A DNA stretch of 64,000 bases. Origin: Trypethelium eluteriae (taxonomy: Eukaryota). The notes under the pieces are model-generated. The model searched no databases. It was not told the origin of the DNA and saw only the letters and a list, made by a program, of their open reading frames with translations. Every line of letters begins with the position of its first letter. Positions within the stretch are counted from its first letter, which is position 1. Below, piece after piece: positions 6,499 through 61,686 of this stretch. Where the stretch lies: assembly GCA_051942245.1 (NCBI GenBank), contig JAVECL010000024.1, positions 1 through 64,000 on the forward strand, written 5' to 3'. The position numbers were made by a program, and so were the translations under genes.

Positions 6499-9400
6499 CT
6501 ACCATCTCCTCTTCTTTGGCCGTTCAGCCCACTGCCTTTGTCTCCACGCCGCCAGACCAGTCACTGAGAAGAGTCCTGCTCCAACGATGAAACAAGGGCC
6601 CATCCATAGCTGAGCTCCAAGGAAATTGTTTGATGCTCCTGATGCAGCAGTAGCGACCGGTCCCGAAATGAGAGCGCCAACCCCTGCCGCAGCGTAAACC
6701 ATGCCCATTCGCGTGCCCAAGACGGCAAGGGAAGGGCAGACGTATGGAAGCACGACTGCAGGGAGGGTTGCTAACATGCCGCTAGCAAAGCCATAGAAGA
6801 CGAGAAAGCCAACGAAGCCACCAAGATTGTGAACTGCGATCCATGAGAACGCGAGGATGCCGCTGAAAAGCTGAGCGGTGAAGAGAAGGGCTTCCCCGCC
6901 AATGAAGTCGGACATGAAGGCCGGCACTGTGCGGCCAAAGAATTGAGCTGCATTGATGACGGCTACGAGATAGAAAGCTGTACTTTGGCTTGCGTGGAGC
7001 TCCGATGTTGCATACACAGTCGTGAGAAAGAAGGGTACGAGGAAAGCGCAAAAGATGAAGAAGGCAGCAGCGATGAAGAATACCATGGGGAGCTCCTTGA
7101 ATGCCGACATGTCCAAAAGTTGCCGTGTTGGCTTCTTTATGTGATCGAGCGGGCGGATGATGAGCGCGGCAACCGCAAGAGTGATCAGTGCAATAAACCC
7201 CATGATACGTGTTGCCCACGCAAAATCAAGCTCGACTAGGAGTCTTCGAAAGACGATGGGGTAGATGACGCCTCCTACAGAGCCACCTGCAGTAGCAAGT
7301 CCGAGAGCCAGTCCCCTTCTATCTTTGAAATAGAGAGGCATCAGTGCTACGCTTGGAATGTATAATAACCCACAACAGAGGCCAGTTAAAATGCCTTGTG
7401 TAAGCATGATTTGATAATATTGTACTGAAAGGCTGAGCATCATTTGGGAGAACACTACTCCCACACCGGCAATGATGAGGATGAGCTTGAAGTATCCTTT
7501 ATCGAAGAGTGGTCCGGAAAAAGCACCAACGACTAAAAGAAGGGCTGCCTGTACGGTTCCGATCCAAGCGATTGAAGACGACGAAAAGTTCTTGAGCACA
7601 CTGGTCTCGTAGTATGCTTGATATATGCCAAAGCTGTTTACGAGACCCCAATTGTTGACGTTAATTAAGAATGCCGCGAGTACTTGAAGCCAGGCTGTGA
7701 TACCACCGTCGGGTGGTTTTAAAGAGATGAGAAAGTCTTCATCTATGAGTGTTGGGTCGCCTTTCTCGGGTAGCTCCCAAGAGACAGTGGGCCTTAGTGG
7801 CGGAGCTAAGGTGGCTGTCCGAGAGATTGACGTCGGTGCCATACTTTTCACGGATTTAGCTTTCAGCGACTCGTCGGATGACTTCCGCGCGTCAGGAACG
7901 AGCGTTTCCTTGGAGTCTGCACCATGTCTGGGCCACTTTCGCGCAGCTAGCAGCTGTCGTCCATTCGATTTTCGAGAAGATCGGTGGGGCAAGTCCCAAG
8001 TTGCGAGTTGAAAAACCTGCTGCATTTGAATCCACGTTTCTACTTCCTCTTCGTCGGAGTCGTAGCCGTTCTGGGTAGGAGGCTCCTCCGAGAGAAGGAA
8101 CGACACTAATCTTTCAACCGACGGATGCTCGTAGACTTGCTTTGGCTCGATGCTGTTTTGGCCCTGAACGGAGTTGATGGCACGGACAAGATTAATGAGT
8201 TGAAGTAAATCCATTCCATTCTGGAAGAAATCATCTTCACTGCAAAGCTCTCGGATCCCCAATTCGAACCGAATAAAGTGCAGAATTGAAGAATACGCGG
8301 CTGATCGGGAGTTTAGATCGAGTTTGACTCTAGAGTCTTTCAGATGAGCATCATATTCATCGAATAGATGTTCGATCTCTTCTTTATAAATGGCATTTCC
8401 TCGTTGGCGTTGGATCGTTCCTTTACCTGCACGTGGAAGAGGCTTTTCTGGACTTGTAAAGAAGATTAGATCGCTGACTATTCGCCCGTGTTTGACACAT
8501 GTTTCGTTCGCGCGCTCCACGTAAGGCCAGATAAGGGCCTTCAAGCTCTTCACCTCGACTTGGAATATCGGTGATCTTTTTGCTTCAACAAGAAGCGCGG
8601 CCTGGAATTTACCCTGCCCAACGATCAAGCATCCAGTCACGTCGGGACTACTTGTAATTATACCTTCCATTGTAACGGGATTCAATTTTTCACCGTTGCT
8701 GAACACAATGACGTCGTCCAACCGGCTCTCATATTTCCAGAGGTCTGGCTCTGTTGGGTGCTTCGAGAACAAATCTTTCGTGTGATACTCTTGCAAATCT
8801 GGGAACGTAACGAAAATCGCTTGCATGAGATCAAGGTGCGGCCTTCGAACAATGACCAATTCATGGAGGCCCCCATCCACCTCACGAAATTCCAAGCCAG
8901 CCCATTCGGCATTGAATTTAAAATAGTGCCAAAATTGAGGGTCCTTCCTGATGAGAGGTAAAGCAAAGAATTCTGTTGCGCCGAGAGAAGAATTCAGTGA
9001 TACGTCGTCAATAAGGATATCGCCAGTAGCTTTCGAGAGCGGTCCACCTGCGTAAGTGAGACCACGTAGCCTTCGTAGGTTTGAGAGAAAAGATTTATTC
9101 TTAGCCAGCTCAACAATGATGGATGGAGGGATGGCACTGTACTCGATCTGGCCATGGATATGGACTGCGTCGATAAGCTCAGCTGTCATTGGCCCCACTG
9201 GCGGAAGGACTATCGTGCTATCGCAGTATATTACTGTAGCAATCGAGTATATGACACCGGCCACGTGAAAGGGAGGGAATGGTGCTAGCAATCTCATGTT
9301 GCCGCACCGTTCTGCAACTTCATTGCCGAAAAGCCAATTTGCGTCCATTGTTGTCGGAACCCCATGTCGAATTGGAACAATCTTTGGAATGCCAGTAGAG

Positions 9401-9991
9401 CCAGATGTATGGAGAAGAAGCCAAGGCTTCATCCGATATTCTTCGAACGACTTCGTAAACGGCCAGTGCTCGACCGGCGCTTCATTAAGCAATTCCGCGA
9501 GCTCTGGTATGATCAGGTGCGTGATTGGGTACTCTTTAAGAATGGATCCAACAATTGGTGGAGCATCCGCTGGGGAAATGAATTTGGTCGCGCCAGCCTC
9601 ATTTAGTAACGATAGATGAGCATCCATGCTGTTTCTCGGAGAAGGGAAGAACATCTGCCGCAAAGTCAGGAGTGGAGGTGATTTGAAGGATTACACTCAC
9701 GACATGGCCAGTCTTGACAGCAGCCATACATATTATTTGATAACGGAGATCGCTATGTCCAAGATATACCAAAGGCTCAAAACTTGAAGAGGTTCCACAA
9801 TTTTCTTTGATCCATAGTGCACAGCGATTGATTGCATTCGCAAAGACGCGGTAAGAAATATTTCGAAAGCCATCTTCCGCGTTCTTAGAACGGGGTATAG
9901 AGGCATATGGTCTTTGATGATCGGCTTCGGCGCGCTCATCTATTAATGCAGAAAGTAGTCGTTTGCCATACGGGAGAGAAGACTCTGCCAT
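6499..9991 (-). CDS. NRPS-like adenylation + thiolation domains fused to an MCT/Mch-family MFS transporter (about 1148 aa); 2 exons
   Basis: Exon 1 9701..9991, intron 9655..9700 (GTGAGT...GCAG), exon 2 6499..9654 stop-free. A-domain motifs LHTSGSTGIPK, YAGGPL, GATE, YHTKDLF, RLDDVIVFSNGEKLNP, LPRAGKGT. T-like DDFFQNGMDLLQL. MFS start PPDGGITAWLQVLAAFLINVNNWGLVNSFGIYQAYY followed by about 12 hydrophobic segments. Confidence 0.85.
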
Positions 9992-10759
9992 AGCTCTTCT
10001 GATAGTGCAGTAGAGATGTTGAGAAACTCAGGTCCATAAGAGGCAGCAAGAAACGGCTAGAGATGCGTATGTGTGAATGCGGCGACCGAGGCGAAACCCT
10101 GTTGAGAAGAAGGACGATAAGAGAGCCAGCCAAGCTCATGAGCAGAACACATAAGAAACATGAGAACTTGGGGCTGACAAGAAGCTTCTTCAGTTTATCC
10201 TCAAGCATAGCGCTTAGCAGGCCGACTACAGTCCGTCAGGCTGTGCGTCATAGTGCAATGATTTCCACACCTAGCTTCGAACTGAAAATCCACACAGGGG
10301 GAATTAGGACCGCTATTCGTTCAAATTCCATTTGTCCAGTTTAGTATGGGTCAGTGCTCTCAGAAAAAGGCAAATCGACGGCCGAACATGGAGAGTACCT
10401 GCACAGCCTACGCGCTTTGGTATTGCTGAAAAACGACTAAGTAGCGAGCTGTGTTGAAGGTGGGACGGCGTGGACAAGTGGGTAATTTTTAGCGTCGTTG
10501 GTTAAGTAAGACATTTCGCGCCTAGTTGTAGATCGACTGTGCTTCTGTTCGATTTACACGTTTGCTAGCCTCGTCGTAACATCTCGGTCAGACCTATTTT
10601 TAGTCGGAAAAGCACTCTAGCTTATTTAGGGAGCAAATTTAAATGTGGAATCCTGATGACACGGCGCGATGCTTCATCGACGGCGACCCTAATTTCCTGA
10701 TTTTCAAATGAGATATGCGGAAGCAGCGAGAAGAGGCATAAGAAAATATGACGCCAAAT

Positions 10760-11977
10760 TTAAAACGCCCATTGCTGCATCCAGAGATCCATCCATTCAA
10801 AACTGACCTTGTTAAGTGCTCTCAATGTCGGACTATACTGAACTGTCTGTTTTGTTTCCAGGGTGACTGAGCGTGCCTTTGGGAACCGCACGGCCTTATC
10901 GGCCAAATTACTGTAAAACTCGAAGAGTTTTGCTGCTGGATTCAGAGCGTAGTCGGGTGTTTCTGACATGTTTTTCTGGAGCGCGGTGACCCATTCTGTA
11001 AATTCTACAATGGCCACGTCGCCGCCCAGATGCTTGACAATAGCCGGTAGCAAAGAGTGCCAAGAACAGGTCCGCGGGTTGACGATGTGATACACTGCAT
11101 TTGAAGAGGTCTGACTCTTCGACCGCCTCTGCGAAAGCTCCATTTGGCAAGGTAGAAGATCCACGACAACCTGCGCGAGCAAATCGACGGGGATCCAGTC
11201 AATTGTTTCCAGTGGTCCAAGAGAGCTTGGCAATAGCTTCAAGTGTTTGGAGGATGCAATGAGACTCGGCAGCCACTCCTGCTTGTTCCATTGGCCATTC
11301 TGCCCATGCAATACAGGTCCGCCAACTTGACCGACACGACAAATCGCAGTCTTGACGCCAGTTGTTTTGCTCGCTTCGGCAAGAAGACGTTCGCTTACAA
11401 GCTTCGACTGTCCATAGCCCATACTTGCCACGCGCCAGTCCTCGATAATCTTTTCTGGCACTCTTTCCCGAGATCCCGGTGTTGCGCCCCATCTTGCTGC
11501 GACACTGATGGAGGAGATGAAAAAGAAGGTCACATCGTAAGTGCAGCGGGTTGCGAAGTCGAGAAGCTGCTTTACGCCACGGATCTGGGGTTCGAATGAT
11601 GTGAAAGCGCGATTGAAGTCTACCGGCCATGCATTATGTAATATGTGTGTCGCTTCGCTTGTTAAAGAGCTGTAGACAAGCTCTGATAGTCCCAGAAAGT
11701 CCTTTGTCGTGTCACATTCAAGGAACTCGATTTTGGGAGGACCCAATTCCGTAGAAAGACCGCGGGCGCGATGTGACTTCCATTGGCGCTGTTCTGCATC
11801 GCTCGACCGATTGAGACATATTACTCGTTCAACTTTCGAGCTGCGTACGAGGGTATCTAAAAGATAGCTCCCAAGAGATCCGGTCGAGCCAGTCAGAATA
11901 ATCGTCATCCGAGACTTTGTAGGTTTCTCCGGTGGCGCGTTCACCTTCTTTGTTCCGAATGATGTGAAAGATGGCAT
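10760..11977 (-). CDS. Stand-alone thioester reductase (NAD_binding_4 / R domain), 405 aa
   Basis: Rossmann IILTGSTGSLGSYLL, HNAWPVDF, FISSIS, catalytic GYGQSK (YxxxK), CRVGQVGGP, WNKQEWLPSLIASS, DWIPVD; in-frame TAA four codons upstream of the ATG. Confidence 0.88.
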   Translation of the reverse strand: MPSFTSFGTKKVNAPPEKPTKSRMTIILTGSTGSLGSYLLDTLVRSSKVERVICLNRSSDAEQRQWKSHRARGLSTELGPPKIEFLECDTTKDFLGLSELVYSSLTSEATHILHNAWPVDFNRAFTSFEPQIRGVKQLLDFATRCTYDVTFFFISSISVAARWGATPGSRERVPEKIIEDWRVASMGYGQSKLVSERLLAEASKTTGVKTAICRVGQVGGPVLHGQNGQWNKQEWLPSLIASSKHLKLLPSSLGPLETIDWIPVDLLAQVVVDLLPCQMELSQRRSKSQTSSNAVYHIVNPRTCSWHSLLPAIVKHLGGDVAIVEFTEWVTALQKNMSETPDYALNPAAKLFEFYSNLADKAVRFPKARSVTLETKQTVQYSPTLRALNKVSFEWMDLWMQQWAF

Positions 11978-17424: not shown

Positions 17425-20400
17425 CTAGGCTTTTGCTGAAGCGAATCCCGCGATCACTCTAATCGTTCTAGCCTCTGGCAGCTCTCCGTCGGTCCAATCC
17501 ACTTCCTTAAAGCCTGCCTCCATCATACACCTCTGCCATCGATCCTCACTAGTGACTGCATGCTCGCGCCCGTCCTCAAACAACCACCATCCTTCGAACA
17601 GCCCGACTGCGATATCCAGCCAAAACATATTATGAGTTATCTCCACAAGAGTCAGGACACCATCGTCGCGCAAGAGTCGACGAAGCATTGTCAAGGAACG
17701 AGTTAGGTTCCGTGTCGCATGGATACAGTTGGTGGAGATGATCACGTGGAATGAGTTGAGCCACGATGGCTTGGGCTCAGTCTCAATGTCCAGGACGGAA
17801 AACTCCATGTTGGGGACATTCTTGAACGTGCGTTTGGCTTGCGCCACCAGCGATGCTGAGAGATCTGTGAAAACATAGCGGAAGGGGATTCCGAGTTTCT
17901 GGAGATGTTCGACAATGTATTTGGTGGTGCCACCAGTGCCTGCTCCGACTTCGAGGATTGAAAATTTGCCCGGTGTCTTAGGCCTGGAAAGGGCTCTTGC
18001 CAGGAATTCACCAAGAGCGAGAGTAGCGGAGCGTACAAGCGGCCAGTTCTCGTAAACGTCGTCAAGGTTTTGCTTGTTCGCTTTATCGCCGAAAACGAGC
18101 TGCAATCCGTCTTTGGCGCCGGTCAAACACAGTGCCAGCTCGGATCCTGTTACTTGAACAAGCTTGTGGACGTTAGCGTGCTGAGGATACTCTACAAGAA
18201 TTTGGGTAAAAATGCTGCTGGCTGGTGTAGGATCCACGGGTTTCGATGTTCGGATAAATTCTCCCTGATCATTGCATTTTATGAGCTTGGCGTCTTCAAG
18301 AACGCGGAAGAGCTGGCGGACGAGCTGCTTGTGTCTTGGTAAGTGGGAAATGCTTGGTACGACGTCATTGGCCTTGAGCTGTGCCATGTCACGTCCCAAT
18401 ACAGCAAAGCCTTCGACGACGTAAGCAAGAACAAGACTTGCCTGACGAGGATATGCGTGCTCCCAGAATCCAGCAGCCTTGGTTTCGACAGCGAAGCGGT
18501 CGTACTCAAATTTACTCTCTACGAATGCCTCGTGGGGTCGAATCGTTCCTGGCAGAGACTGCGTGCTCTCCCCAGGAGGTTGTATGTTTTTGGCCTCACC
18601 CGATCCCTGAACTGTTGCGAGATTCGCCTCATCGGGTCCTGTCCTGTCAGACCCAATACCTAAAACAGAGTCAATGTGGGTACAGATTGCCCGCACATTG
18701 GGGAAGAAAAGGATTTTGTTCAGATCAATCTCGATTCCAAACGAAGCTTGAAGGTCATTCAAGAGTTCCATAACAACGAGCGAGTCAATCCCGAGATCTT
18801 CAAGCGTGGAGTCATCACTGATTTCGTCCGGAGGAATGTCTGTTACACGGTGCAAAATTTCTCTCAGCTCCTGTCTCTTACTACCTGCGCGAGGTTCTAA
18901 GGGTTGTGATCGATCTGACACTGGCTCTGGAGGCGTAAATTGCGATTGAGCTGGAGTTGAAGCTCCAGAGTCATCTTTCGGTGCATCCACGCTATTCGAT
19001 ATACCGGTGTTATTTGCACTCTGCAACGCCTGGGCTAGAACAGACATCGATGTCCTCGTGAATTCAAATCCTAGGAAGGCAATCGCTACTCTCTCCTCCT
19101 TTGCATCGAAGATGTAAACGTCGCATTCGGTGCGCTGATCGGTGTCCTCTGTCAGGAGCGCATAAGCCAACCAATCTCCAGCATGGATGTCAAAGCTACC
19201 GCTGGTAACGATCTGCTTTATACCTAAGCATACGAGGACCTCTTCGGTGCTTGGGTGGCAAAAATAATTGACAAGAATGCCAGCAAACTGCATGAGGCTG
19301 TCGATCACCGGTGTATCGTATAAGTTTTCGCTGGAGTCGAGCCGGGGATTGACTTTTGCGACTACTCGTCCTGCTGCTTCATGACCCATGCAGGAAATGC
19401 TTTTGATACCTTGGTACATTTCGTCAAAATGCACTAACCGTTGGATGGCCTGGTAAATGTGCTTCCCCTGCATCTTCTCTCCATCAGTAGCATTGAGGAT
19501 GGAGAGACACCGATTAAATCCAATTAAAGAACCATAACGCTTCATCTTTTGACCAAGTGCAGGATCACCGCGTCTCTTGAGTCCAACCTGACCCGTTGTG
19601 TGGATAGCATCATTGGTTCTGCCATCCTTGGTTCGGCTCGATACCACAAAAGACCATAGAAGCTGCTCGTCGCCTACGCAGCTCAGCGTGAAGAAGATAT
19701 CTTTGTTTTCGTCAAGTCCAATTGGGCTCCTCATCTGCAGCGATTTGATCGAGGTCACATGGGTCTCGTATGTTGCCGACGGGACTAACGCCATTGCAGT
19801 ACGCGAAAGAAGCTCAATGTACAGCGAGACGGGAGCAAGGGCCTGTCTCGAGGTAATGTGACCTTTCAGTAGCATCTTGTAACGCTCACTCTGAGGATCA
19901 ACAAGGAAGACAGCAACTTTCTTGCTTTCGTCTTGGAAGCCAATAAAGGAAAAGAACTCATGGATCAGACGAGGCTGCGCAAATGTATCTGACTCCACGG
20001 CAGGCTTTTCTTCGACTCGATCAACAAATGGAAGCCAGTGTTTGGTCTTTTCAAATTGATACGGAGGCACGTTCTTGTGATCATATTGGTGTCTCTGAAG
20101 GCGATGGAAAGGCCAAAATCGGAGCGCATAGCCAGTTTTACACAACGCAACGGTCAATTCTGCCAGCGCATTCATCACCTCGGGCGACGATAGGACAGAA
20201 GGACGGTATCTTTGTGGTGATGCAGACTTGGAACCCATGCAGTTTTGGACCAGCGAGATTACAGAAGTTCTTTGGCCAGCTTCCAACCACGTGCAGTCAC
20301 CAAACCTCTCAGTCAGCCTACCAATCGCTTCTTTAAAAAAGACGGGCTTTCTAGTATGTTCCGGAATCAACCAGGGCCCTGGATCTGTATTGGTGGACCC

Positions 20401-23400
20401 TTCGGTGCTCAGCTCTATGTGGACTTTCGGCTTCTCTCATCTGATACTAGAAGCCAGGCCGTAAAGATCCGGAAGTAGTGGGTCGGTGAACGCAGAATGA
20501 AAACCGTGTGTGACCTTCAACCGTTTAGCAAGAACAGATTGGTTGAGCTTTGGGTCGTTTGCCACAAAATCATCAAGGGATGAAACAGCTTTCTCGGACC
20601 CTACTATAACATGGTTCAACGGGTGGTTGAAGCAAGCTATCTCGAGCTTGTCCTGATTCTCACCGTCGGCATTGAGAGAGGCAAGAATACTGGAGGTAGT
20701 CTCGAAGTCGGCTTGTAAAGAGATCATGGATCCTCGCTCAGCACCCCATGAGCTGGTAATCAGCTCTGCACGCCGAACAACCAATATAAGGGCATCGGAG
20801 AGCGACAGACATCCGCATATACACAATGCAGTCAGCTGCCCGAAGCTATGGCCAACCACTGCTTTAATGTCCAGTCCACAATCAATCCAGCATTTAGCAG
20901 AAGAATACTGAATGGCAAAGAGACTCGCGTGAAGGGTGGGCACATGAGAAATGGTCGAGCGCTGAAAAATAGCGGGATACAGGCTTCGTTGACCCAACAA
21001 GCGCAAGTAGGTTTCGCATTGATCGAGATGGAATCGCAAAATAGCAGCGTTTCTAAAGAGCTCTTCTGACAAACCCACGTAATCGCTTTCTTGGCCTCCA
21101 AAGACCATGATGACCGAGGGAGGGTTTGGTGATGTGGCGTCCGGAACAGACTCAGGATTTCTAGCAGTCTCTTCAAGTTTCTTCTCCAAATCATCGAGGT
21201 CCGTCACCGTTTCTATGAGGGTGTAAGGCAGTGCTTGATTTACCCGATCCGCAAGGTTAAACAGCAGAGAAGAAAGCAGAAATCTGGAATCAGTACAAGT
21301 GGCTCGCTCCGATCTTATAAACTCCAGAAGCTTCCTGGAGTACATCGACAAGCTTTTCCTTGAAGCAGCGGACAAAATAAGCGGTTGCTTCGATATGACG
21401 ACGGGTGTTCGCTTAGTGTCACCAGTTAGCTTCGGAGGAGCCTGACGCACGGCAACAGCAGCATTGCTTCCAGCTGCACCATAGCTGTTGATGCAGGCTA
21501 GTCGCGAGGATCCTTGCCATGACAGACTCTTTTGCGGGATCTCCATCTTGTCAGGCTCAAGCGCGGGAATCTTCGGGTTGAGGGAGTTGAAGTTGGCTTG
21601 ACCCAGGATTGAACACTTCTGCATCATGAGGAGAACCTTGATCAAACCCGCTACCCCCGATGAAGCCTCTGTATGACCAATATGGCCTTTGACAGAACCA
21701 AAATATAGTGTTTCTTTGCGATCAGGCCCTGAGAACCCCTCTCGAATACTCTGACACTCAATTGGGTCGCCAATTTGGGTGCCTGCGTTACCGACGAAGA
21801 TAAGCTTCTATACGCACTGGGATACTATACAAGAACAGCTTACCGGTGCCGTGTGCCTCCACGTATGATACTTGCGATGGTGCTGCATTTGCCATGTGCA
21901 AGACATTGCTATAAACCCTCGTCTGTGACGTTGAGCATGGAACGGTGATGTGGGCATCGTTCAAATTCTGGTTAACCGAGGAGCCGACGATAACTCCTAG
22001 GACATTGTCATGCTCTTCCAGAGCAGCTGATAGTGATTTGAGCACAACGACTCCAACGCCTTCGCCTCTACAGTAACCGTCAGCTGAAGCATCAAAGGGT
22101 TTACAAGCGCCCGTAGGGCTTAGAAACCCGGCGGCAGCTAGGTTTTGGTAGTCAAAAGGGCTAGTGAAGATATTAGTCCCACCCGCAAGGGCTCGGGTAC
22201 ATTCTCCGCTTTGGATTGCTCGGCACGCAGCATTGATTGCAACAAGTGAAGATGAACATGCTGTATCAACCGTCATAGCAGGGCCTGTCAATCCAAATTG
22301 ATGGCTGATTCGTCCACTGAAAAAGGCTCGGGAAGTACCCAGCATCGAATATGCTGTTGGTGGATGACATACGACATTGTCATAATAATTATTCGCGACG
22401 GCGCCAAGGTAACAGCCGTAGTCTGTTGGCACAGACCGAGAACCTGATCCTGACCCAAAGAATCCAGCAGATTCGAGTGTTTCATACGCTACCTCAAGCA
22501 AGACGCGCAGCTCAGGATCCCATGAAACTGCCTCGCGCGTTGTCTTTTTAAAGAAGCGATGATCAAAAGCATCGGGATCGTCAATGAAATTGCCCCAGAA
22601 CTGGGTCTCAGGACGATCCGCAATACGTTTACTGTTGAGGATCAATCGGGTAGGAGGTTTCTGTACTGTGGAGACACCGGAGGCCAAGAGCTCCCAAAAC
22701 CTTTCGATAGAATCGGCTCCAGGAAAGCGGCAGGCCATGCCAACGACTGCGATCGAATGGGGAGGATATTGACCATTCAAGTCACGTACCGTCCCAGAAG
22801 ACTGCGGAACACCATTGGTCCCATTGGCGGCCTTTGCCATTGGCGGTGTGGACTTTGCATGTCCATTCGATATTCGTCGGGCAAGACTAAATGGAATGAT
22901 ACCTTCTTCACAACCCAGGACCACCGTCGTCGGATTCTCTGTTGGAAAGTCGTCTAGTGATGCTTTCACTGTTCCATACCAATCTGATGCGTGAAGTAGG
23001 ATACTTTCAAGGGCGACCTTAAAGACTTCATCGCCATGTCCAATTGGCTGACCAGTAGCATTGCGACGTAACGATACCTTCAACCTAGCAGGATCGGGGA
23101 ACTGAAATCCATCCGTTGCGCGACAAAACGCATCCAGGTGCTCCACGGCAGTCGAATAAACCGCGGGGCAGTGATAACGAGCGGTAATGCTGACAGGTTT
23201 GACGCGGAAGCTAGCCTTGCGAAATGACATTGCCAGTTCTGCTCTGAAGTTGGCTGATGTCGTGACCGTTGCACATGTGTCATCAGTGATGCACGAAACA
23301 TATGTCTATTCTTGTCATCAGTAATGGATTCAGGGGAGACAACTAACGCTAGGTGCCTTATGAGACTCACACCCGGATAGCGATTTGAGATGGTGTCAAC

Positions 23401-24015
23401 GTCGTCCCTTGTCAAATCTTCCTTGCTCCATCGGACTGACAACGTACAGGCCAGATCTGGTGGGTCAGCATACATACTGTCGCAGTCTACGTATGCGCCG
23501 ATGCACATAGCTAAACGGATACTAATGGCCACCATATCCCCCAAGTCCTGAGTGCTTCCAGAGAAAGCAATAGCCGCTGCAGTGAGGAAGCCAGCGCAGA
23601 ACCCCTGCACATCATAATGCCTCCCACCTTCAAGCACAGACTGGTACCATGTGTCACCTCCATCCTCGTGAAGATACTGTAAGAATTGTCCTATCTGAAG
23701 AATCGCTGTCAGAGGCAAAGCGATAATGCTTGGTAGAGTTTCTGTAGAGATTCCCAGATCTCCAGAGTCCAGCCAGTGTCTCAGACAATCGAGCTTGTCA
23801 AGTCCAGGCACCCTGCTCAATTTTTCGTCCCTGCTGGCGAGTCGTTGGAAGACATTTGGGAAATCTTTAACGGTGGGTAATAGTCTCTCAGCCATGCCAT
23901 CGCGCACTAAAACCTGATGAATCCGTCTCACATCGCCTGGAGGTGGTAACTGAGCTTGAGGTCCGCAAAGGATCAAAAGCGGAGGTCGTGATTCTGCGCT
24001 GTTCGTTGCCGTCAT
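17425..24015 (-). pseudogene. Non-reducing PKS SAT-KS-AT-PT-ACP-CMeT (2154 codons) with one in-frame TGA at 20437-20439; possibly pseudogenised
   Basis: SAT GFCAG and RYH; KS DTACSSS, EAHGTG, GHIGHTEASSG; AT GHSFG, THGFHS; PT GHITS, DSLMQF; ACP LGIDSL; CMeT LEVGAGTGG, TNCIHAT. Introns 23306..23370 and 21783..21843. ORFs 20437..21645 and 17425..20370 share a frame, and the TGA is the only interruption. Confidence 0.8.
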
Positions 24016-24899
24016 ATCTCTTTTTTCTCATTCAACTTCGAGGGAACTTTGAATTTACTCTGCGTATCATCAAATTAACATCAGATTAATACATCATTTT
24101 CTCTACCATTCTTCTCACCTCGTCAAGTTCGTCGGCAGCAACTGTTCTGCCTATGAAGTTTTCTGCAGTTTCAATCAACTCTTTTCATTTTGTATGGTGG
24201 ATTGTATGCCTGGTAATACCATGCAACGCTGCTTAGTTAGGTCACAATAAGCAATTCATAGCTTCTCCATTTAAAAAGCGGAATGATTGGCACATCTGCA
24301 AACAACTTGTCAATGCGGGCTTACTTCTTACAAGCTACATATCACTGCAATAACAGGGCCGACTATCTGTTCAAGGCGATTGACCCGTCTACAAGGATAC
24401 AGTGCGAGTGGACTAATCGATTTTACAATTCGACGATATGGTAATTCAACAGAAAAAATTTGCTGATCGAGGCTAGACGATCCTACACAAGATTCCTCTG
24501 GAGATTCACATGCTAGTAGTACTGTCGACTATCTTGAAGAACTGTAGTGTACCGTCGGCCCGAATTGCAATCGCTCTGACGAGTTCGCAGTGCGTCTTAC
24601 TGCGCTTGACATCTGTCGCAGTTCTAAGTGGGGGTAGGTTTTCATTTTTTCTACGTTTGTTTTTTGGTGCGGAACTGAAGACTTATCCCGTTTTTTCAGT
24701 TCATCACTGCTCTAGAGTGGTCATGTTATCTAGTTGAAGCGGATCTCCTCTTTTGGCCGTAATTTTGGGCAGCTGAAAGCCACTGCCCGATCCCTGGACG
24801 ATAAGAACAGTATAACGGTATGTATGTTTCGGCCTCTGGTGCCATTAGACATAGTAAGATGCTGCAGGGTGACTCGTTTGGCTTCTGGCGTTGTCGTGA

Positions 24900-25715
24900 T
24901 CAGTCGGTGACACCGGTCTCTTTACCGAGAGCTAGAATTTGAGCTGCGACGACGGCAACGTCTTTCGTCTTGATCGGTACACGATGGTCTCCGTCCCACT
25001 CAACCACACGAGTGGTTCCAGGCTTGCAGTAGTCCTTAAGCAGCTGGCGATGCAATGCAAGGCCGGGATCCTTCATACCATGCACATGGAGAGTAGGCAA
25101 GCACAGTACATGCTCGTCACCCTGCATGAAAGGGCCGCTGACGTTAGCGAAAGCGCCCGTTGTGAGTTCGTTAGCATCGACAAGGGCAAGCGAGTCGGTA
25201 ACCTCAACATCGAGCGACAGTAGTGGCGCGCGGCCTGCCAGAAGCACAGCAAACTTGAACTTGGAGCCAGCCATGGTCGCGCCGAGCTTTGTCGTCCGAA
25301 TCTGTTGTCGCAAGAGCAGGCTGGCACAGACTTTAGCACCTTGACTGAAGCCCATGAGTGCAACCCAGTCCCCTGTTCCCCCCTGTTGGTCGTCGCGGTC
25401 CATGGCTTGGTGCAGGTTCTCATCAATTTTTTCGATCATTGCATCAGGTCCTGGGTCTGGATGCTCGGGTGACCAGCGAAGCCAACGGCGGAATGTTTGG
25501 ACGTGTTGGAAAGTGGGGATCATGCCTGGGCCGGGGGTTGAGGGAAACGGGCCATCTGCGAAGCAGAAGCGGAATTTGTGTCCAAGGTGTTGGATTAGAG
25601 TACGGCATTGGAGCGAGAAGACTTCGGCAGTAACGCCGCCTCCGTGCAGGCAAAGAATCCGTGGAAGGTGTAGCGTGGAACCCGGCTGCGACGAATTGAG
25701 CGGTGAAGAAGGCAT
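24900..25715 (-). CDS. FSH1-family serine hydrolase (CitA/LovG-like)
   Basis: PRILCLHGGG, GFSQGA nucleophile, PTLHVHGMKDPG, WDGDHRVP; intronless; immediately upstream of the PKS on the same strand. Confidence 0.9.
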   Translation of the reverse strand: MPSSPLNSSQPGSTLHLPRILCLHGGGVTAEVFSLQCRTLIQHLGHKFRFCFADGPFPSTPGPGMIPTFQHVQTFRRWLRWSPEHPDPGPDAMIEKIDENLHQAMDRDDQQGGTGDWVALMGFSQGAKVCASLLLRQQIRTTKLGATMAGSKFKFAVLLAGRAPLLSLDVEVTDSLALVDANELTTGAFANVSGPFMQGDEHVLCLPTLHVHGMKDPGLALHRQLLKDYCKPGTTRVVEWDGDHRVPIKTKDVAVVAAQILALGKETGVTD

Positions 25716-27644: not shown

Positions 27645-28383
27645 ATGGATTCTACAACGAGGGTTCTGGCCGCAGTGCTGCTTCTTGCAGGGGTTTCCAC
27701 AGCCAGTACACCGACTAGATTTGCACCTGCGGTATCACAGGATCTTCCTCTCACATATGCCAACGGCGTGGAGGTCTCTCCGCCGGGACTTACATTATCT
27801 GAAGCTCGTACGTAAGCCTTCTTTCTGATCTATCCATTACTATTGCAGCGTTCTTTATCTCGTATGCCTTGGCGTTGCGTATCGAGAGCTAATGGGGAAC
27901 CTACCAACTTCAGAAGTAGCAGAAGCTCCGACTCTAGGCAATCCCGGTTTGGTCGAAGCTGGCAGCAAATATACTCTCGTTATGGTTGACTACGACGTCG
28001 ACGTCAGTGGTACGCAAACTTCAGTCCTGCAGTGGTATCAGCCTGACTATGCCCTGGATTCGTCGGGTAACAACCTCGTCGTGACCAATACATCGGCGAC
28101 CAATGCTTCATATATTTCCCCTCAACCAAACCAAGGTTCTCCCCACACCTATGTGGCTATCTTGTACCAACAACCTTCTGACTACGAGCTTCCTAGCTGC
28201 CTTGACACGCAGCTATCGGTACGTGGTGGACTCGATCTTCGGGACTTCACAAACGCCGCAGGTCTAGGCCAGGCCGTCGCAGCGGACTGGTTTCAAGTCC
28301 AAAACCCAATTCCCGCGACGACAACCTACCCAATCACTTCAACATCGGTGTTGAGTTACGACTGTAGTCGAACTGCGCATTAA
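27645..28383 (+). CDS. Secreted PEBP-like protein with diverged motifs; 2 exons
   Basis: ATG 27645 MDSTTRVLAAVLLLAGVSTA (signal-peptide-like); intron 27808..27913; YTLVMVDYDV, YISPQPNQGSPHTYVAILYQQP. Confidence 0.8.
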
Positions 28384-29390: not shown

Positions 29391-29998
29391 ATGCCTAGCA
29401 ATACCAGCGTCAAGCAGGGGTTGAAGCTCATCGAGGATGATAAGTCGAAGGTGCTAGGGCTTACTGTGGGCAATCGGTCGATCTCAACAGGCGAATTTGT
29501 TCCCAAGGCTGGTATGCCCCGCTGCGCGACTACCTAGCCTTCCGAAATTCCCGCCGTCAACCTCTTACTGACTTATGTAACCTTCTTATAGATGCTCAGT
29601 CAGCACCAGAAGTCTCTTTTGGGGTGCCCTCACAGTCAGCCACCTACTTGGTCGTCGGTCTGGACCTCGATGCCCCTCTACCTTCTTTTGGCGTCCTTGG
29701 GCCCATCCTACACTGGATTCAGCCTGGTTTCAAGGCATCGCCATCCTCAAACACCTTAGCTTCTTCCGAGCCGTTCGTTGCAAATTACATCGGTCCGGCC
29801 CCTCCTCCATTCAGTGGCCCCCATCGCTACGCATTTTTCTTGTATGAACAGCCCGAGGGTTTCAGTGGCAAGAAGTATGCACCACCGAACGGAAAGCCGC
29901 TGGGAAATATGAATAGGATGAGATACGATTTGGATGCTTGGGTGAAAAAGGCTGGTTTGGGTGAGCCACTTGCTGTCAATTACTTCAAGAGCAATTAA
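29391..29998 (+). CDS. Cytosolic PEBP-like (Tfs1-type) protein; 2 exons
   Basis: ATG 29391 in GCCACCATG context; intron 29512..29591; DLDAP, ILHWIQPG, YIGPAPPPFSGPHRYAFFLYEQP. Confidence 0.88.
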
Positions 29999-54998: not shown

Positions 54999-56872
54999 AT
55001 GGCTGATGGCAACAATGTCATCGCTATTGCGCCCACTGCTGAGGTAGTTCGGCCCTGACGAGTGCGCAGGGCTTCGTGCTGTACTGACTACCTACAGAAA
55101 CCCGCTGACGTGAAGGATACCGATGTAGTAACTGATTCGGCTGAAGCGGCAGTCAATCCCGCATGTGAGTTGTAGATCAGCATACTTCCAATACACTCAA
55201 ACTACACAATACTAACATCGATCATCTTGTTTAGCCACCGATCCTGCCGCTCTTGAAGACGCAGACACTGGCGCTGAAGCCGACACGAACGAGCAAGAGA
55301 AGGCTCAAGATACCAATATGTCTGATGACAAGGCCAACGCTCCCGGTGAGGAGACTGCTACTCCTCAAGCAGAGTCGGCAGCTGGTGCTAAGGCAACCCC
55401 AGCGTCTGCAAACAAGAAAGAGAAGCGAAAGTCAAGTGGAGGCGTGCCTGAGCACAAGACCAAGAAGCTCAACAGCAAGAAGTCTAAGCCAGACCTACAC
55501 CTCGACATCCAGGCAGGTGAATTCTGGTGGGCTCGTATGAAAGGCTATCCACCTTGGCCTGCTGTCGTCTGCGATGAGGAGATGTTACCCGAAACACTCC
55601 TCAAGAACAGACCTGTTAGTGCTGCACGCACTGATGGCTCTTATCGCGAAGACTTCTTGGAAGGCAATAAGAACGCCAAGGAGCGTACTTACCCTATCAT
55701 GTACTTGGGTACCAATGAATTGTCAGTCTCACATATTCATTCAAGGCCATGTCGGCCTCTAGCTGTCGACGAGGCTAACATTTACATCTAGTTCCTGGAT
55801 CAAGAATACCGATTTAAGCAAGATCGACCTGGAGCAGATCAAAAAGGAAGAACAAGGCAAGAAGCCGAAGCACCTTTGGAACGCCTATGAGATATGTGCT
55901 GAGGAGCACGACCTTCAACACTTCAAGGATGTTCTTCGTGAGCACGAGAAAGCCATGAGCCGTGACGCAGAAGAACGTAATCGGAAAGAGGCAGAAAAGG
56001 AGGAGAAGGCGGCAAAGAAGGCGGAGCGCGCCGAGAAGGCTGAAAAGCGTAAGTCCAAAGGCAAAGCTGAAGATGAGGATGAGGAGATGGAGGAAACAGA
56101 ACCGAAGCCAAAGACACCTGCTTCTAAGAAACGCAAAAGCCGCGGTGAGCCTGATGCCGAAGACGAGAAGGTAAACATTTCGCCCTTGCAACCATTTGGA
56201 GGTCCAAATCCGAATAAGCTGACTGGTATATAGCCTGCCAAGACTCCCAAGATTAGTACGAAGCTGAAGCTTGGTTCCAAGCAAACTCCTAATGGTGAAT
56301 CTTCCACCACAAAATCTGGCAATAAAAACCGGAAGGTTGTCACGAAGCCCTCTTCTGATGATGACACTGAGAACAAAGAGGGCGAGAAGCCTCTTACCGA
56401 GGCCGAGAAACTCGAAAAGCGTCGCAAGACTGTGCTCTACCTACGCCATCGCCTGCAGAAGGGCTTCCTGGCGCGCGAGGCACCGCCGAAGGAAGAGGAA
56501 ATGGAAACCATGAACGACTTCTTCACGCAGCTTGAGAGCTACGCCGACCTAGAGCTGAGTATTCTCAAGGCAACAAAGATTCACAAGGTGCTCAAAGCCA
56601 TTCTCAAGTTGTCCTCTATTCCCAAGGAGGATGAATATCACTTCATGGATAGGAGCAATCGGTTGCTACAGGGTTGGAATAAGGTGCTTGTGGGTGACGA
56701 AAAGGAAGACGATGTCGATGAGAAGGCGGAGGGTGCGGTGAATGGGGAGAAAGGGGAGGCAGTGACGGGGTCCACTGGTAAGGAGGACGGGGAGAAGGCC
56801 GAGGGAGACGGCGACGTGGAGATGAAGGAGGCGAAGGAGGATGCTGGTGAGGGAGAAGCTACTGCCGCGTAA
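54999..56872 (+). CDS. PWWP-domain chromatin protein with C-terminal helical domain; multi-exon
   Basis: WARMKGYPPWPAVVCDEEMLP, YPIMYLGTNEF, VLYLRHRLQKGFL, TKIHKVLKAILKL; several short GT-AG introns. Confidence 0.88.
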
Positions 56873-58741
56873 AGGCGAGACTGAACTTGCGTCCGGATGG
56901 CGGACTCCTGGATGTCTGATAGGAACTGACCGGCAGTCTACTGACTCCGACTTCTGAAGCTCCCAGAAGGCATTTCTGCTTTGACTTTAGTATATTCGGT
57001 GAAGCTGTGTATACATATTACCAGTAATGAAATGAGACTTTCAGTGGCAAATTACTCTATCTACTTAACCCCAGCGGAATGTTGTGCCTTGGCAGCCAAC
57101 CCGATTATATTCGCGAGAAACAGGGTTGAAATATCATCTAAAGTTTACGGACTGTTAATTGAAGGTAAGTATTCAAGTCCAACAAAGTCGAGATGGGTGA
57201 TATTATAATGCAACGGACTTTAAGTTGATAATTTCGTATTATGCAAGCCATGCCCAGCCGAGAAGCCTTTCCCCAGTGCGACTGCATCAACTGGACGCCA
57301 CTGGTTCACGCCAGTTACAAGACAACCTTTATACCTCACCGGGACTCTCTATGTGGGTATTACTACTCCAGGTCAAGCAAAACTTTCTAAGTCTGCTCTT
57401 CTTGGTAGTTAATGTCTTATCCGTTCGACGAAGCTGAAGATAGTTGCTTAGTCCGTTCTGTGAGACGACTGCTATATCTATGTTTGTTAAATTCTTATAG
57501 CTATTATTACTATCACATCAGCCCATACAAGGCCTACCCTGTTTGCAAGGCTTTTCTCAGCCTGAGCTGATGCTTAAGTGAGCAGATACTTGTCGTTCCT
57601 CTCAGTGTTGCTCAGTAAGCAGAAGTTGCTCTTGTTCAGTTTCGATACAATTTAGCGATGAGGATGACATTCATCCTCTACTGAAAGGATTTATCTGGTG
57701 AACGAGTCCAGGCAGTAATTAGTAAGTTTAGACACTGTCATATGTGATAGCGCTCGCGAGCTTCTGTGACAGCAAAGATCAATTTTTGGAAGCAGCGATT
57801 GCGAGTTCCTCGTGGAGGGCCTGGAGGCTGTTTATCGCTAGAGGTATCTAATTTCGCGTCTTAGAGCCGACGATGATAACACTGACGCTCTTATATCTGG
57901 CTTAAACTAACTAATAGAATTTATTAAATAGCTAATTAATGACTTAAGAATCATTCTTTGACGAGCAGTACGACTATCCAACAATACACACTCATCACTT
58001 ACCAGCAAGGCCCCTAAAAATTTTCTGGGAGAAAAACAAATCGGCAAAGCATCGCAGATACACGGTGCGCATAGACTGCGAAGGATATACCAACGACACG
58101 ATGATCTGTTGGAAAAACTTCGGCCAAGAGGGTGAAAATCATGGGACCCATTCCCAATGAATGGACGAAGAATGAAGATACAGGTGAAAAAGATGATGAT
58201 CTGGGTAGGGACAATGTTACGGACTGGAATCAAGAGGCTGAGGCCGGTAGCTAGCATTGACAACGTGAGAAAAGGCAGTGTAATACGTCATAGCCATCGT
58301 CGCCTTTTGTATTGAAAAGATAGTATGCAGCGAATGGAAGAATAGAATTTGACAGACCAAGGTCACCGAGGCCCTAACTGAAGAGCAGTGGCTCGAGAGA
58401 ATCTAATAGTCTACAGCGTAGCAAACTCCTCGCTATACTGAATGGGGTAACTGGGGGCGAAGGCGACCGCCATGCTTCGACCTGTCTGCCTGTCGACCTT
58501 CGGTACCAAGTACCCAATATATGCTTGTTAATTATAATGGATACAAAATCTGTCGAACCTCGAGCTTTCAACCCTAAAAATTTGTCAGCTTGTACGGTTC
58601 TTCCGCCGAGGAGATTTCTACATTTGTTAAAAAATCTCATTGGCCTAACGGCAAATCAATTACTACCATTGGGTATCATCAATGTAAAGATACAGACATG
58701 TTTCAAAGCAGAAATATGCGAACATCGAAGCACAATAGCCC

Positions 58742-61686
58742 CTATGTCAAGTAGTACAGTAACACTACGGCAACGGCCGCAAACCTCAGCCCTGCTCCAC
58801 CGACCAGCCGGGCCCCCTTCCCCAGATGTGCGACAGGAGCCGACGTCGTTCCCCCACCGACTCCGCTATTAATATAATACCCTACTCCTCCACCTGCTCC
58901 CGTGTCTCCTCCCACACTCCCTATCGTGCTTGTCATGCCACCACTCGCCTCCACGACGTCGCCACCCGGCGCTTCGCTAATCGTAAATCCACCCGTAACC
59001 ACGGCCTCACCCCCCGGAACCAGTGTTGCGCCCCCAACGAAGTACTCTCCAACGCCCGTCGGACTCAGCGTCAAGACGACTCCATTCGGCTCCGTTAGCA
59101 GCGTTTCGCCTGCAGCCAAGCTCTGCGTCACGCCATTGACGACGCCGACGTAACCGCCGTCGGCCAGGCCGTCAGCGGGAACGGAGATGGTCTCGACCTG
59201 TCCGTCTTGCGTGACGGTGATAGCGTGGCCGGGGAGAAGGGTCTGGCCGTCGATAACGAGCGCGGAGCCGGCGGTGGGTATTGCGGGGATCACGGCGGTG
59301 CCGAGGGTGAGGGCCGTGACGTCGCCGGAGGTGGGATAGCTATATTCGGGGCCCAGGGGGAGGGAGGAGATGGTGTGGCCGTTTATAATGGCGACGCCGG
59401 AGGGGAAGAGAGAGTAGGTGTCGCCAGAGATGGTGATGGGTGGGCCACCGGCGCGGAGGGTTTGGCTGCCGATTGCGTAGGCGTTGGAGCCGAGCGGGGT
59501 GGCGATGGCGTTGCCGAGTGCGATAGTAGTGGGGCTTGAGTAAGCAGAGAGTGTTGACACTGTTTGGCCGTTCACCACTACAGCGCTGGATGGACCCAGA
59601 GAATAGGTCGTCCCTGAGACTACCACTGGCGCCCCGTTCACACTAAGCGTTTTTCCCCCAATGGCGAAAGCATTGGGTCTGAGCGGAACAGCAATCGCAT
59701 TCCCAAAGTTTACAGTTCCTTGTCCTGGCTCGTAAGCTGCAAGGCTCGAAATGGTCTGGCCGTTGACAACGACTGCTGCTCCCGACGCGCCTAATGAGTA
59801 TGTTGTCCCTGCTGCGACCACTGGAGCGCCGCCAGCAGTGATTGTGAAGCCGCCTAGGAGGGCATACGCACTGGGAGCCGCAGGGGTAGCGATTGCACCT
59901 CCAATTATGACAGACGCTGGTGTCGTTGCTGGTACTTGCCCTGGTTCCTCTTGGCCCGGAACAGAACTGTGACCTGAGCCACCATTACCCCCTCCCGCAG
60001 GACCTATAGTTGAGTATCCTCCGGCTTTATAGTTGTTTCCTCCTCCGGAAGGCCTCAAAGCAGATACAACGTCTACTCCTGCTCCACTGGCTACTTGAGA
60101 AATGCGACCGACATTGGGATTTCCACCAACACTGCTTCCAGAGTCGACTGCTGGAAGAGATGGTACTGCCGCTTGTTGTGATCCTTGGGGTTCCGCGCCA
60201 GCTGCTTGCGATGCTTTCCCGCCAGAGCCTAAACCAGAACCACCACCGGAATCGGACCCAGAGCCATCGCCAAAGCCAGACTCAGGGCCATTACCTGGAA
60301 CGTGACTAGATCCTTGAGATTTTGATTGTCTGGCACCTGCATCTCCTATTGAGCTCGATGGGCCTGTTGATTGCGGCTTCGCTTGAGATACACCGTTTTG
60401 GGGGTCTCCCGACGATGATGAAGCTGGGGAAATGGAGTCTGAGCCCATGGGTAAGGTCGAATCGAGACTGTACTGAGCTGTACTAGTCGGCGGTGCAACT
60501 ACCTGCGTTGTTGTACGAGGTTGCGCAGGCTGATTTATTGACGAAGGATTTCCTGCCGCTGTGGTCACATCACCACCGGGTACTCCTTCAGTTTTGCTTC
60601 CCGCACCACTGCCTCCACCTACGCCACCGTAATTTCCGCCTAATGGTATTGTGGTCGCTCGCTCAACAGTCAATTCTGCAACGGGAATGTGAAGCGTAGG
60701 AGCGCCCGATCCGGGGACGGCACCGCATTGGGTAAGGAATGGGTATTGTGATTTGACACTAGGCTGGGAGTCGATGAATGAGACTAATTCTGGAGAGAGA
60801 TTGAACTCTCTTTCTGTTCCCCCATAGGTCCAATTGCTAATGAAGTCCAACCCTGGAAGCCAGTACCAGGGCGGATTGAGAATTATGGCCGTCAGGTAAG
60901 GATTGCCGGAGTCCTCTCCGTCTCCGAAGCTATCAGGCCTGAGGGGGGAGAATCCTCCAGACCATGCTGGTTCCGTATATGTGCTACCTGCAATGTAGTC
61001 TGTCGTTCCCGAAGACGTTGATACCCGTCCTGGGCCTAGAGTATAGGTTGCAGGCGGATGTGTTCTAGACCATGCAGTCACGGTACTTGTATAAGCTGCC
61101 TCGCTATAGGTGGCTAGACATTCGGTATCTGAGGAGATTCCTGCCATTAAATAAACCGTAGACACAATCGCAAAAGGTGAAGGAGAAGCTCTGATAAGAA
61201 ATTAGTCTTGCGATGACGATGGTTGGGGAACATTCCTAAGCTGAGTACTTACATAGATGTATGGTTGTCTTGCCAAATCGTTGAGGAATCGAGTGCGGTG
61301 GCATCATACCATGCTGCATCACGCCCGAGGATATTCGAAATATAAGTAAACAAGCCCTGTCCCCCGTCACCAAAATCGAAAATCGTACTATAGCTAAAAG
61401 GACTGGTTGCATTGTTTGCCACCGTGACAGTGGTGGAGGACACAATCGTGTTATTGTACTGGGCAAATTCGGTGATGATAGTCTCTTTGGTATATTGCAA
61501 AGAACTATTGTACCAAATGTTGAGCCCCACGAAATCCGCGTATATGAAGCAGCAAATTTGTGAGGTGTTGATAGCTGTTGTTATGGTTGATAGACTTGAT
61601 GAAAGCCTCGTAGATATTTTGGTAGCATTTGTGACAGGTTTTCCAGCCGCCAGCCTTGCAAGGCACAATGACATTAAAATCAACAT
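58742..61686 (-). CDS. Secreted Gly/Ser/Thr-rich, probably GPI-anchored cell-surface protein with internal repeats; 2 exons
   Basis: Signal peptide MLILMSLCLARLAAG; intron 61191..61252; repeated units like GGAPVVAAGTTYSLGASGAAVVVNGQTISSL; hydrophobic C-terminus FAAVAVVLLYYLT*. Confidence 0.82.

Follow-up and report, generated by a model that had tools for sequence, protein, structure and literature searches.

A fused A-T-MFS gene and its carrier attachment site

The DNA studied here, further referred to as the window, is a stretch of 64,000 nt assigned to Trypethelium eluteriae (GenBank assembly GCA_051942245.1, contig JAVECL010000024.1, positions 1 to 64,000). Its minus strand carries a two-exon gene at positions 9991-6499, whose 1148-aa product consists of an adenylation (A) domain, a carrier (T) domain and a transporter domain of the major facilitator superfamily (MFS). 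At the position where the relatives of this protein have the phosphopantetheine-attachment serine, the window encodes leucine.

Exon 1 (9701..9991, minus strand; 97 codons) encodes the N-terminus of the adenylation domain, and the exon junction is letter-for-letter as in P0121, the annotated protein of a reference genome. The 46-nt intron (9655..9700, minus strand; gtgagt...cag) is likewise confirmed by the P0121 sequence. Exon 2 (6499..9654, minus strand) is an open frame of 1051 codons followed by a stop; according to the open reading frame (ORF) and Pfam it covers what remains of the A domain, followed by the T domain, a linker and the MFS domain. This two-exon model reproduces P0121 (KAF2234983.1, "MFS general substrate transporter [Viridothelium virens]"), which also has 1148 aa. 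The core and C-terminal subdomain of the adenylation domain (AMP-binding and AMP-binding_C_3; 8347..9654, minus strand) contain the TSGSTG, SRLDD, GEKLNP and GKGT motifs. AMP-binding scores 49.3 bits in the window ORF and 65.9 bits when exon 1 is included (P0121), and AMP-binding_C_3 scores 113.9 bits.

The A-T and MFS portions are joined with neither a stop codon nor an intron in between. The MFS domain (6502..7737, minus strand) is of the monocarboxylate-transporter (MCT, SLC16) type: MFS_1 is recognized with 74.8 bits, above the cut-off of 33.4, and over its last 433 residues the protein resembles solved MCT chains, namely MCT8 (E 2.9e-16, over about residues 16-385 of the query) and MCT1 (E 2.4e-8), as well as MCT2 and MCT10. 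The linker between the T and MFS domains (7738..8085, minus strand) is variable; it includes codon 7791-7789, which reads CCC (Pro) in the window, whereas the reference has Leu. The closer fused homologs share a conserved FLISxxPPDGG stretch just before the first transmembrane helix (7738-7800 of the window, minus strand). The linker is otherwise unalignable among homologs; this stretch may be an element specific to the fusion. The Pfam scan of the A-T-MFS protein did not find NAD_binding_4, the domain of thioester reductases.

The core of the T domain lies at 8095..8241 (minus strand). Read on the minus strand, the codons GAT GAT TTC TTC CAG AAT GGA ATG GAT TTA CTT CAA (8235..8200) translate as DDFFQNGMDLLQ. 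The TTA codon (8206..8208, minus strand) encodes leucine at residue 483 of exon 2, the phosphopantetheine-attachment position, so that the serine of the (G/M)xDS(L/I) motif is absent from the window protein and leucine stands in its place. The reference genotype has TCA (Ser) here, and a single C-to-T transition on the coding strand turns one codon into the other. Both the codon and the motif are exactly as the initial annotation had described them. Pfam detects the T domain (PP-binding, PF00550) at residues 475-523 of the window ORF with 18.5 bits, which is under the gathering threshold of 20.8; with serine in place (P0121) the score is 25.5 bits, and it rises to 35.3 bits in the ortholog P0002 and to 37.6 bits in the ortholog P0003.

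The consensus DFFxxGxDSL, to which the motif had been compared in the initial annotation, holds in the relatives. In the alignment of the window protein with 59 homologs, the attachment residue is Ser in 58 and Thr in one (P0047). In a larger alignment of 120 homologs, the same column contains Ser in 118 sequences, Thr in P0047 and a gap in P0070, which is truncated. The closest orthologs, P0002 (81% identity) and P0003 (77%, named Bathelium mastoideum), both read GMDSLQ. Since serine is found in nearly all homologs, these two orthologs included, leucine is the derived state. Leucine is thereby confirmed as truly present in the record and as a genuine departure from the family; judging from the alignments, it is not a family trait and is unique to the window record. 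The initial annotation had proposed that a conserved non-serine residue in orthologs would support repurposing of the domain, while serine would support decay; the outcome fits decay, not repurposing.

The rest of the gene is, as far as its sequence tells, intact, with no decay beyond the leucine site. At columns conserved in at least 90% of sequences the window protein departs in only two of 126 cases (F431 for Y and L483 for S), and few of the 60 sequences in the comparison depart less often.

The listed homologs include 51 further A-T-MFS fusions from several classes of ascomycetes, 15 proteins with A and T domains only and many proteins in which A and T are followed by a thioester reductase (R) domain. 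The latter, further referred to as A-T-R, are the next-best homologs, with 36-45% identity. A FastTree phylogeny of the A-T region (120 tips, midpoint-rooted, P0045 dropped as short) groups the 52 MFS-fused proteins, the 15 A-T-only proteins and a single A-T-R protein (P0065) into one clade with support 0.81, and the other 52 A-T-R proteins lie outside it. One 1357-aa homolog, P0016, contains short-chain dehydrogenase domains (PF00106, PF13561) besides A, T and MFS, which suggests that another type of reductase can join the A-T-MFS scaffold.

The neighbouring thioester reductase and the proposed function

A stand-alone thioester-reductase gene of 405 aa (NAD_binding_4, PF07993, 124.8 bits; 10760..11977, minus strand) is located 768 nt upstream of the A-T-MFS gene, on the same strand. 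Its product is 46% identical over 385 aa to the R domain (residues 656-1033) of P0065, the A-T-R relative from the same clade. The GYGQSK motif is kept in it; according to a passage of PMC5826065, neither Tyr nor Lys of the equivalent GYxxxK motif is dispensable in NcCAR.

Homologs of the stand-alone R protein accompany the fusion elsewhere. Among the matches listed (the best 120 of 319 R matches), such a homolog occurs on a contig of identical size for at least 17 of the 51 MFS-fused proteins and for four of the 15 A-T-only proteins. Here identity of contig size was taken to mean the same contig, and many of the contigs are a few kb long, so 17/51 is a lower bound. In Zasmidium cellare, the R and A-T-MFS homologs have adjacent locus tags, PRZ48_010318 and PRZ48_010319. 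The arrangement found in the window thus comprises A, T and MFS in one frame and a separate R gene adjoining it.

Judging from this arrangement and its recurrence, the stand-alone R protein is likely the trans-acting reductase partner of A-T-MFS. Because a cognate R protein that uses a thioester adjoins the fusion and travels with it, the T domain would normally need its serine. By sequence, the family looks like a carboxylate reductase in which the R domain has become a separate protein, while the A-T half has gained a transporter.

The normal mechanism can be sketched from the domain content and from the known A-T-R carboxylate reductases. The cytosolic A domain would adenylate a carboxylic acid and load it as a thioester onto the phosphopantetheine arm of the T-domain serine. 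The separately encoded neighbouring R protein would then reduce the thioester to the aldehyde. The fused MCT-like transporter would keep the enzyme at the membrane, where it may also supply the acid or carry it off.

What the R domain of A-T-R enzymes reduces is the thioester carried by the phosphopantetheine of the T domain. If the R protein of the window likewise depends on it, the leucine form should be null for the reductive route: its T domain would not be phosphopantetheinylated, and the module of this isolate would get no further than adenylation. According to passages of PMC5826065, a Ser-to-Ala substitution at the equivalent residue inactivates both NcCAR and NiCAR.

Origin and meaning of the leucine codon

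The window protein (P0001) and P0121 are 99.8% identical and constitute the whole of one 90% cluster (two members, the other one having Ser). They differ at two of the 1042 aligned residues, namely L/S at the attachment site and P/L at residue 622 of exon 2; within the T domain, Leu/Ser is the sole difference. The column of residue 622 contains Ser in P0002 and Arg in P0003 and is unalignable in more distant homologs. A single public run containing the stretch was found (X1, in the form of Logan contigs). Its word share is 0.93, which by simple arithmetic from 31-letter words corresponds to about 0.2% base divergence. Over positions 7700-8700 it provides one contig with a word depth of 416.5 and two differences from the window: at 7790 it reads A for G, and at 8207, G for A. 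X1 therefore has the reference genotype at both variable sites, and G at +8207 restores TCA (Ser).

The proteins of the window ORFs are recorded on a contig of 94,397 nt, and the named reference proteins, on a contig of 372,172 nt. Five genes could be compared between the two (of ten ORFs looked up, five were absent from the collection, and for two the clusters contained the window only). In total, seven of 2964 residues differ: four of 937 in the exon of a polyketide synthase (PKS) gene, one of 309 in RTA1, two of 1042 in A-T-MFS, and none in R (0/405) and an FSH1-type hydrolase (0/271), the last two counts being deduced from the exact sequence recorded on both contigs. All but one of the seven are single transitions, with changes in both directions. 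The ORFs of 1051, 997, 937 and 801 codons are unbroken, with no frameshift. This pattern points to a second isolate and not to an error-ridden assembly; it suggests that the window stems from another natural isolate or from a sister very close to the reference. In the PKS exon the differences (G/S, L/P, H/Y and T/I; 18148-19200, minus strand) are denser than in the four other genes compared.

We consider it probable (roughly 0.6) that the leucine is a recent, private, strain-level loss-of-function allele. Several points weigh against this. Leucine is known from a single assembly record, and the only run examined reads G at +8207. A consensus error would stand out precisely at the most constrained residue of the domain, and real mutations of the attachment serine are expected to be selected against. 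Both DNA-level differences in the gene are non-synonymous and fall on second codon positions, which is compatible with errors, although there are only two of them. In addition, the mechanism of the module, i.e. its substrate, the reduction in trans and the role of the MFS part, is only inferred. A rival explanation is that A at +8207 arose as an error of the consensus or the assembly, or that the assembler picked up a minor variant, in which case the T domain of the organism would be normal, with TCA (Ser). Speaking for this are the deeply covered X1 contig, the serine of the annotated reference protein and the retention of Ser or Thr in all relatives. The initial annotation had held that reads with G at +8207 would mean a sequencing error. 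G is indeed what X1 has, but X1 matches the reference and not the window at 7790 as well; it carries the reference genotype and does not represent the reads of the window, so it is no proof of an error in the isolate of the window. Moreover, if all seven differences were errors, the rate would be near one substitution per 1000 bases with no indels, which to our knowledge is unusual for any current assembly method. Because so high a rate is implausible, most of the differences are to be taken as real, this one among them a priori. We regard an error as the less probable, though still a serious, explanation. Inactivation at the strain level, one of the two alternatives put forward in the initial annotation, agrees with the serine of the relatives and the reference and with the otherwise intact gene. 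As regards correction at the level of mRNA, restoration of the serine would need U-to-C editing, and we know of none in fungi.

Two further explanations, both raised in the initial annotation, can be weighed against the same data. According to one, the T domain is vestigial or repurposed, and the A domain either serves as a free CoA ligase or charges a different carrier, for instance the acyl carrier domain (ACP) of the PKS, so that serine is dispensable. In its favour are the intact A domain, the Thr that replaces Ser in one homolog (P0047), and a non-reducing PKS with an intact ACP and no release domain, encoded 7.4 kb away. However, serine is present in 118 of the 120 homologs and in the sister isolate; the conserved trans-acting R protein beside the fusion needs a thioester substrate; and for the 51 fused homologs there is not a single match in contig size with a homolog of the PKS exon (among proteins of 515-1640 aa). 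The T domain, too, is unchanged relative to the serine form except for the leucine itself, with no secondary decay or adaptation. With serine and the R protein conserved and no co-occurrence with the PKS, this explanation is not supported, and we regard it as very improbable. The other concerns the origin of the substitution, namely that it is a footprint of repeat-induced point mutation (RIP). The change from TCA to TTA is indeed CpA to TpA on the coding strand, and to this extent the RIP-type context noted in the initial annotation is literally correct, but the gene bears no RIP signature. A RIP-mutated sequence would have a TpA/ApT of more than about 0.89, where the gene has 0.58, and a (CpA+TpG)/(ApC+GpT) of less than about 1.03, where the gene has 1.40; on both indices the gene was rejected as RIP-mutated. 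The GC content around the gene is 47-50%, the second difference of the gene, which has a CpC context, runs in the opposite direction, and the 4-kb bins of the window are all similar, apart from a mild rise at 56-60 kb. A lone transition cannot be assigned to RIP in any case, and such an origin has hardly any credit with us. The private allele is our preferred reading.

Two observations touch on these comparisons. P0047, an A-T-MFS homolog that reads GLDTLQ at the attachment site, departs from the consensus at 25 of 132 conserved columns and may be a degenerating or divergent copy. In the bin 56001-60000, TpA/ApT reaches its maximum for the window (0.91) and (CpA+TpG)/(ApC+GpT) its minimum (1.12); no other bin comes near RIP-like values.

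By itself the Ser-to-Leu change is ordinary: either a base error or a private null allele of a secondary-metabolism gene. Nothing in it points to a new use of a carrier domain. The module composed of A-T-MFS and the trans-acting R protein (6499-11977, minus strand), which recurs in many ascomycetes as judged from the 51 fused homologs listed, is the more interesting feature. A bolder proposal, which we put forward tentatively and with more doubt than confidence, is that the module represents a widely conserved fungal split carboxylate reductase, in which passage of the acid across the membrane is directly coupled to the activation and reduction that it undergoes at the membrane face, and that the isolate of the window is a natural Ser-to-Leu null beside a wild-type sister. 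If this is true, the pair of isolates offers a ready-made natural on/off comparison for finding the product of the module. Should transport indeed be coupled to carboxylate activation by the fusion, this would amount to a carboxylate reductase organized in a new manner.

Related systems and other genes of the window

The nearest known systems are the fungal A-T-R carboxylate reductases such as NcCAR and AtCAR (ATEG_03630). Common to them and the module are AMP-binding together with AMP-binding_C_3, PP-binding, NAD_binding_4 and GYxxxK. They also share the DFFxxGxDSLQ motif of the T domain with the relatives of the window protein, which itself has Leu for Ser. The difference is that in the window R is a separate gene and an MCT-like MFS domain occupies the C-terminal place of R. 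Regarding membership in the A-T-R group, the core motifs of an ANL adenylation domain are thus present, whereas a reductase in the same polypeptide is absent. Nonribosomal peptide synthetase-like (NRPS-like) enzymes of A-T-R composition are described as carboxylate reductases in passages of PMC9605436, and the T-domain serine is given as essential in these reductases in passages of both PMC5826065 and PMC9605436.

Bacterial fusions of the LplT-Aas type likewise combine an MFS transporter and an adenylate-forming enzyme in one polypeptide. They are the nearest feature clusters in the ESM Atlas (0.87), where all matches are under the guide value of 0.9 and serve as leads only. The coupling of transport to acyl activation is an idea known from LplT/Aas. 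The likeness is one of analogy only. Between the MFS and the AMP-binding domain of the acyl-ACP synthetase these fusions have a PF01553 acyltransferase domain, and they use a free ACP, whereas the window protein has its own T domain and a C-terminal MFS; PF01553 was not found in it by Pfam at E up to 0.01. The SLC16 transporters matched by the C-terminal 433 residues (MCT8, MCT2, MCT10 and MCT1) are, as known MCTs generally, free-standing and, unlike the window protein, contain no adenylation or carrier domain. In the full-text literature (supplements and subscription journals lying outside this scope) no description of the A-T-MFS fusion architecture was found, and database labels of the homologs are limited to "MFS general substrate transporter" or "NRPS-like".

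The PKS gene (17425..24027, minus strand) encodes a non-reducing enzyme of the SAT-KS-AT-ACP-CMeT composition, for which the reference model is P0243 (2046 aa). P0243 ends after the methyltransferase, with no reductase, thioesterase or release domain. The LGIDSL motif of its ACP, described as intact in the initial annotation, was found to be so at 18792-18778. Identity to the ACP-CMeT exon is only about 60% even in its best non-self homologs. As to linkage, the sizes of the contigs with A-T-MFS fusions coincide with none of those with the 69 non-self homologs of the PKS exon (0/51), but the homolog search covered proteins of 515-1640 aa, with full-length PKS models (>1640 aa) lying outside it, so that this is a weak negative only. 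A functional link between the PKS and A-T-MFS within the gene cluster of the window is possible.

Just upstream of the PKS lies the gene of the FSH1-type serine hydrolase (24900-25715, minus strand), which could be a release enzyme. Further along the window, two ORFs on the plus strand, 27829-28383 and 29444-29998, form a tandem-like pair, both matching the phosphatidylethanolamine-binding protein family (PF01161).

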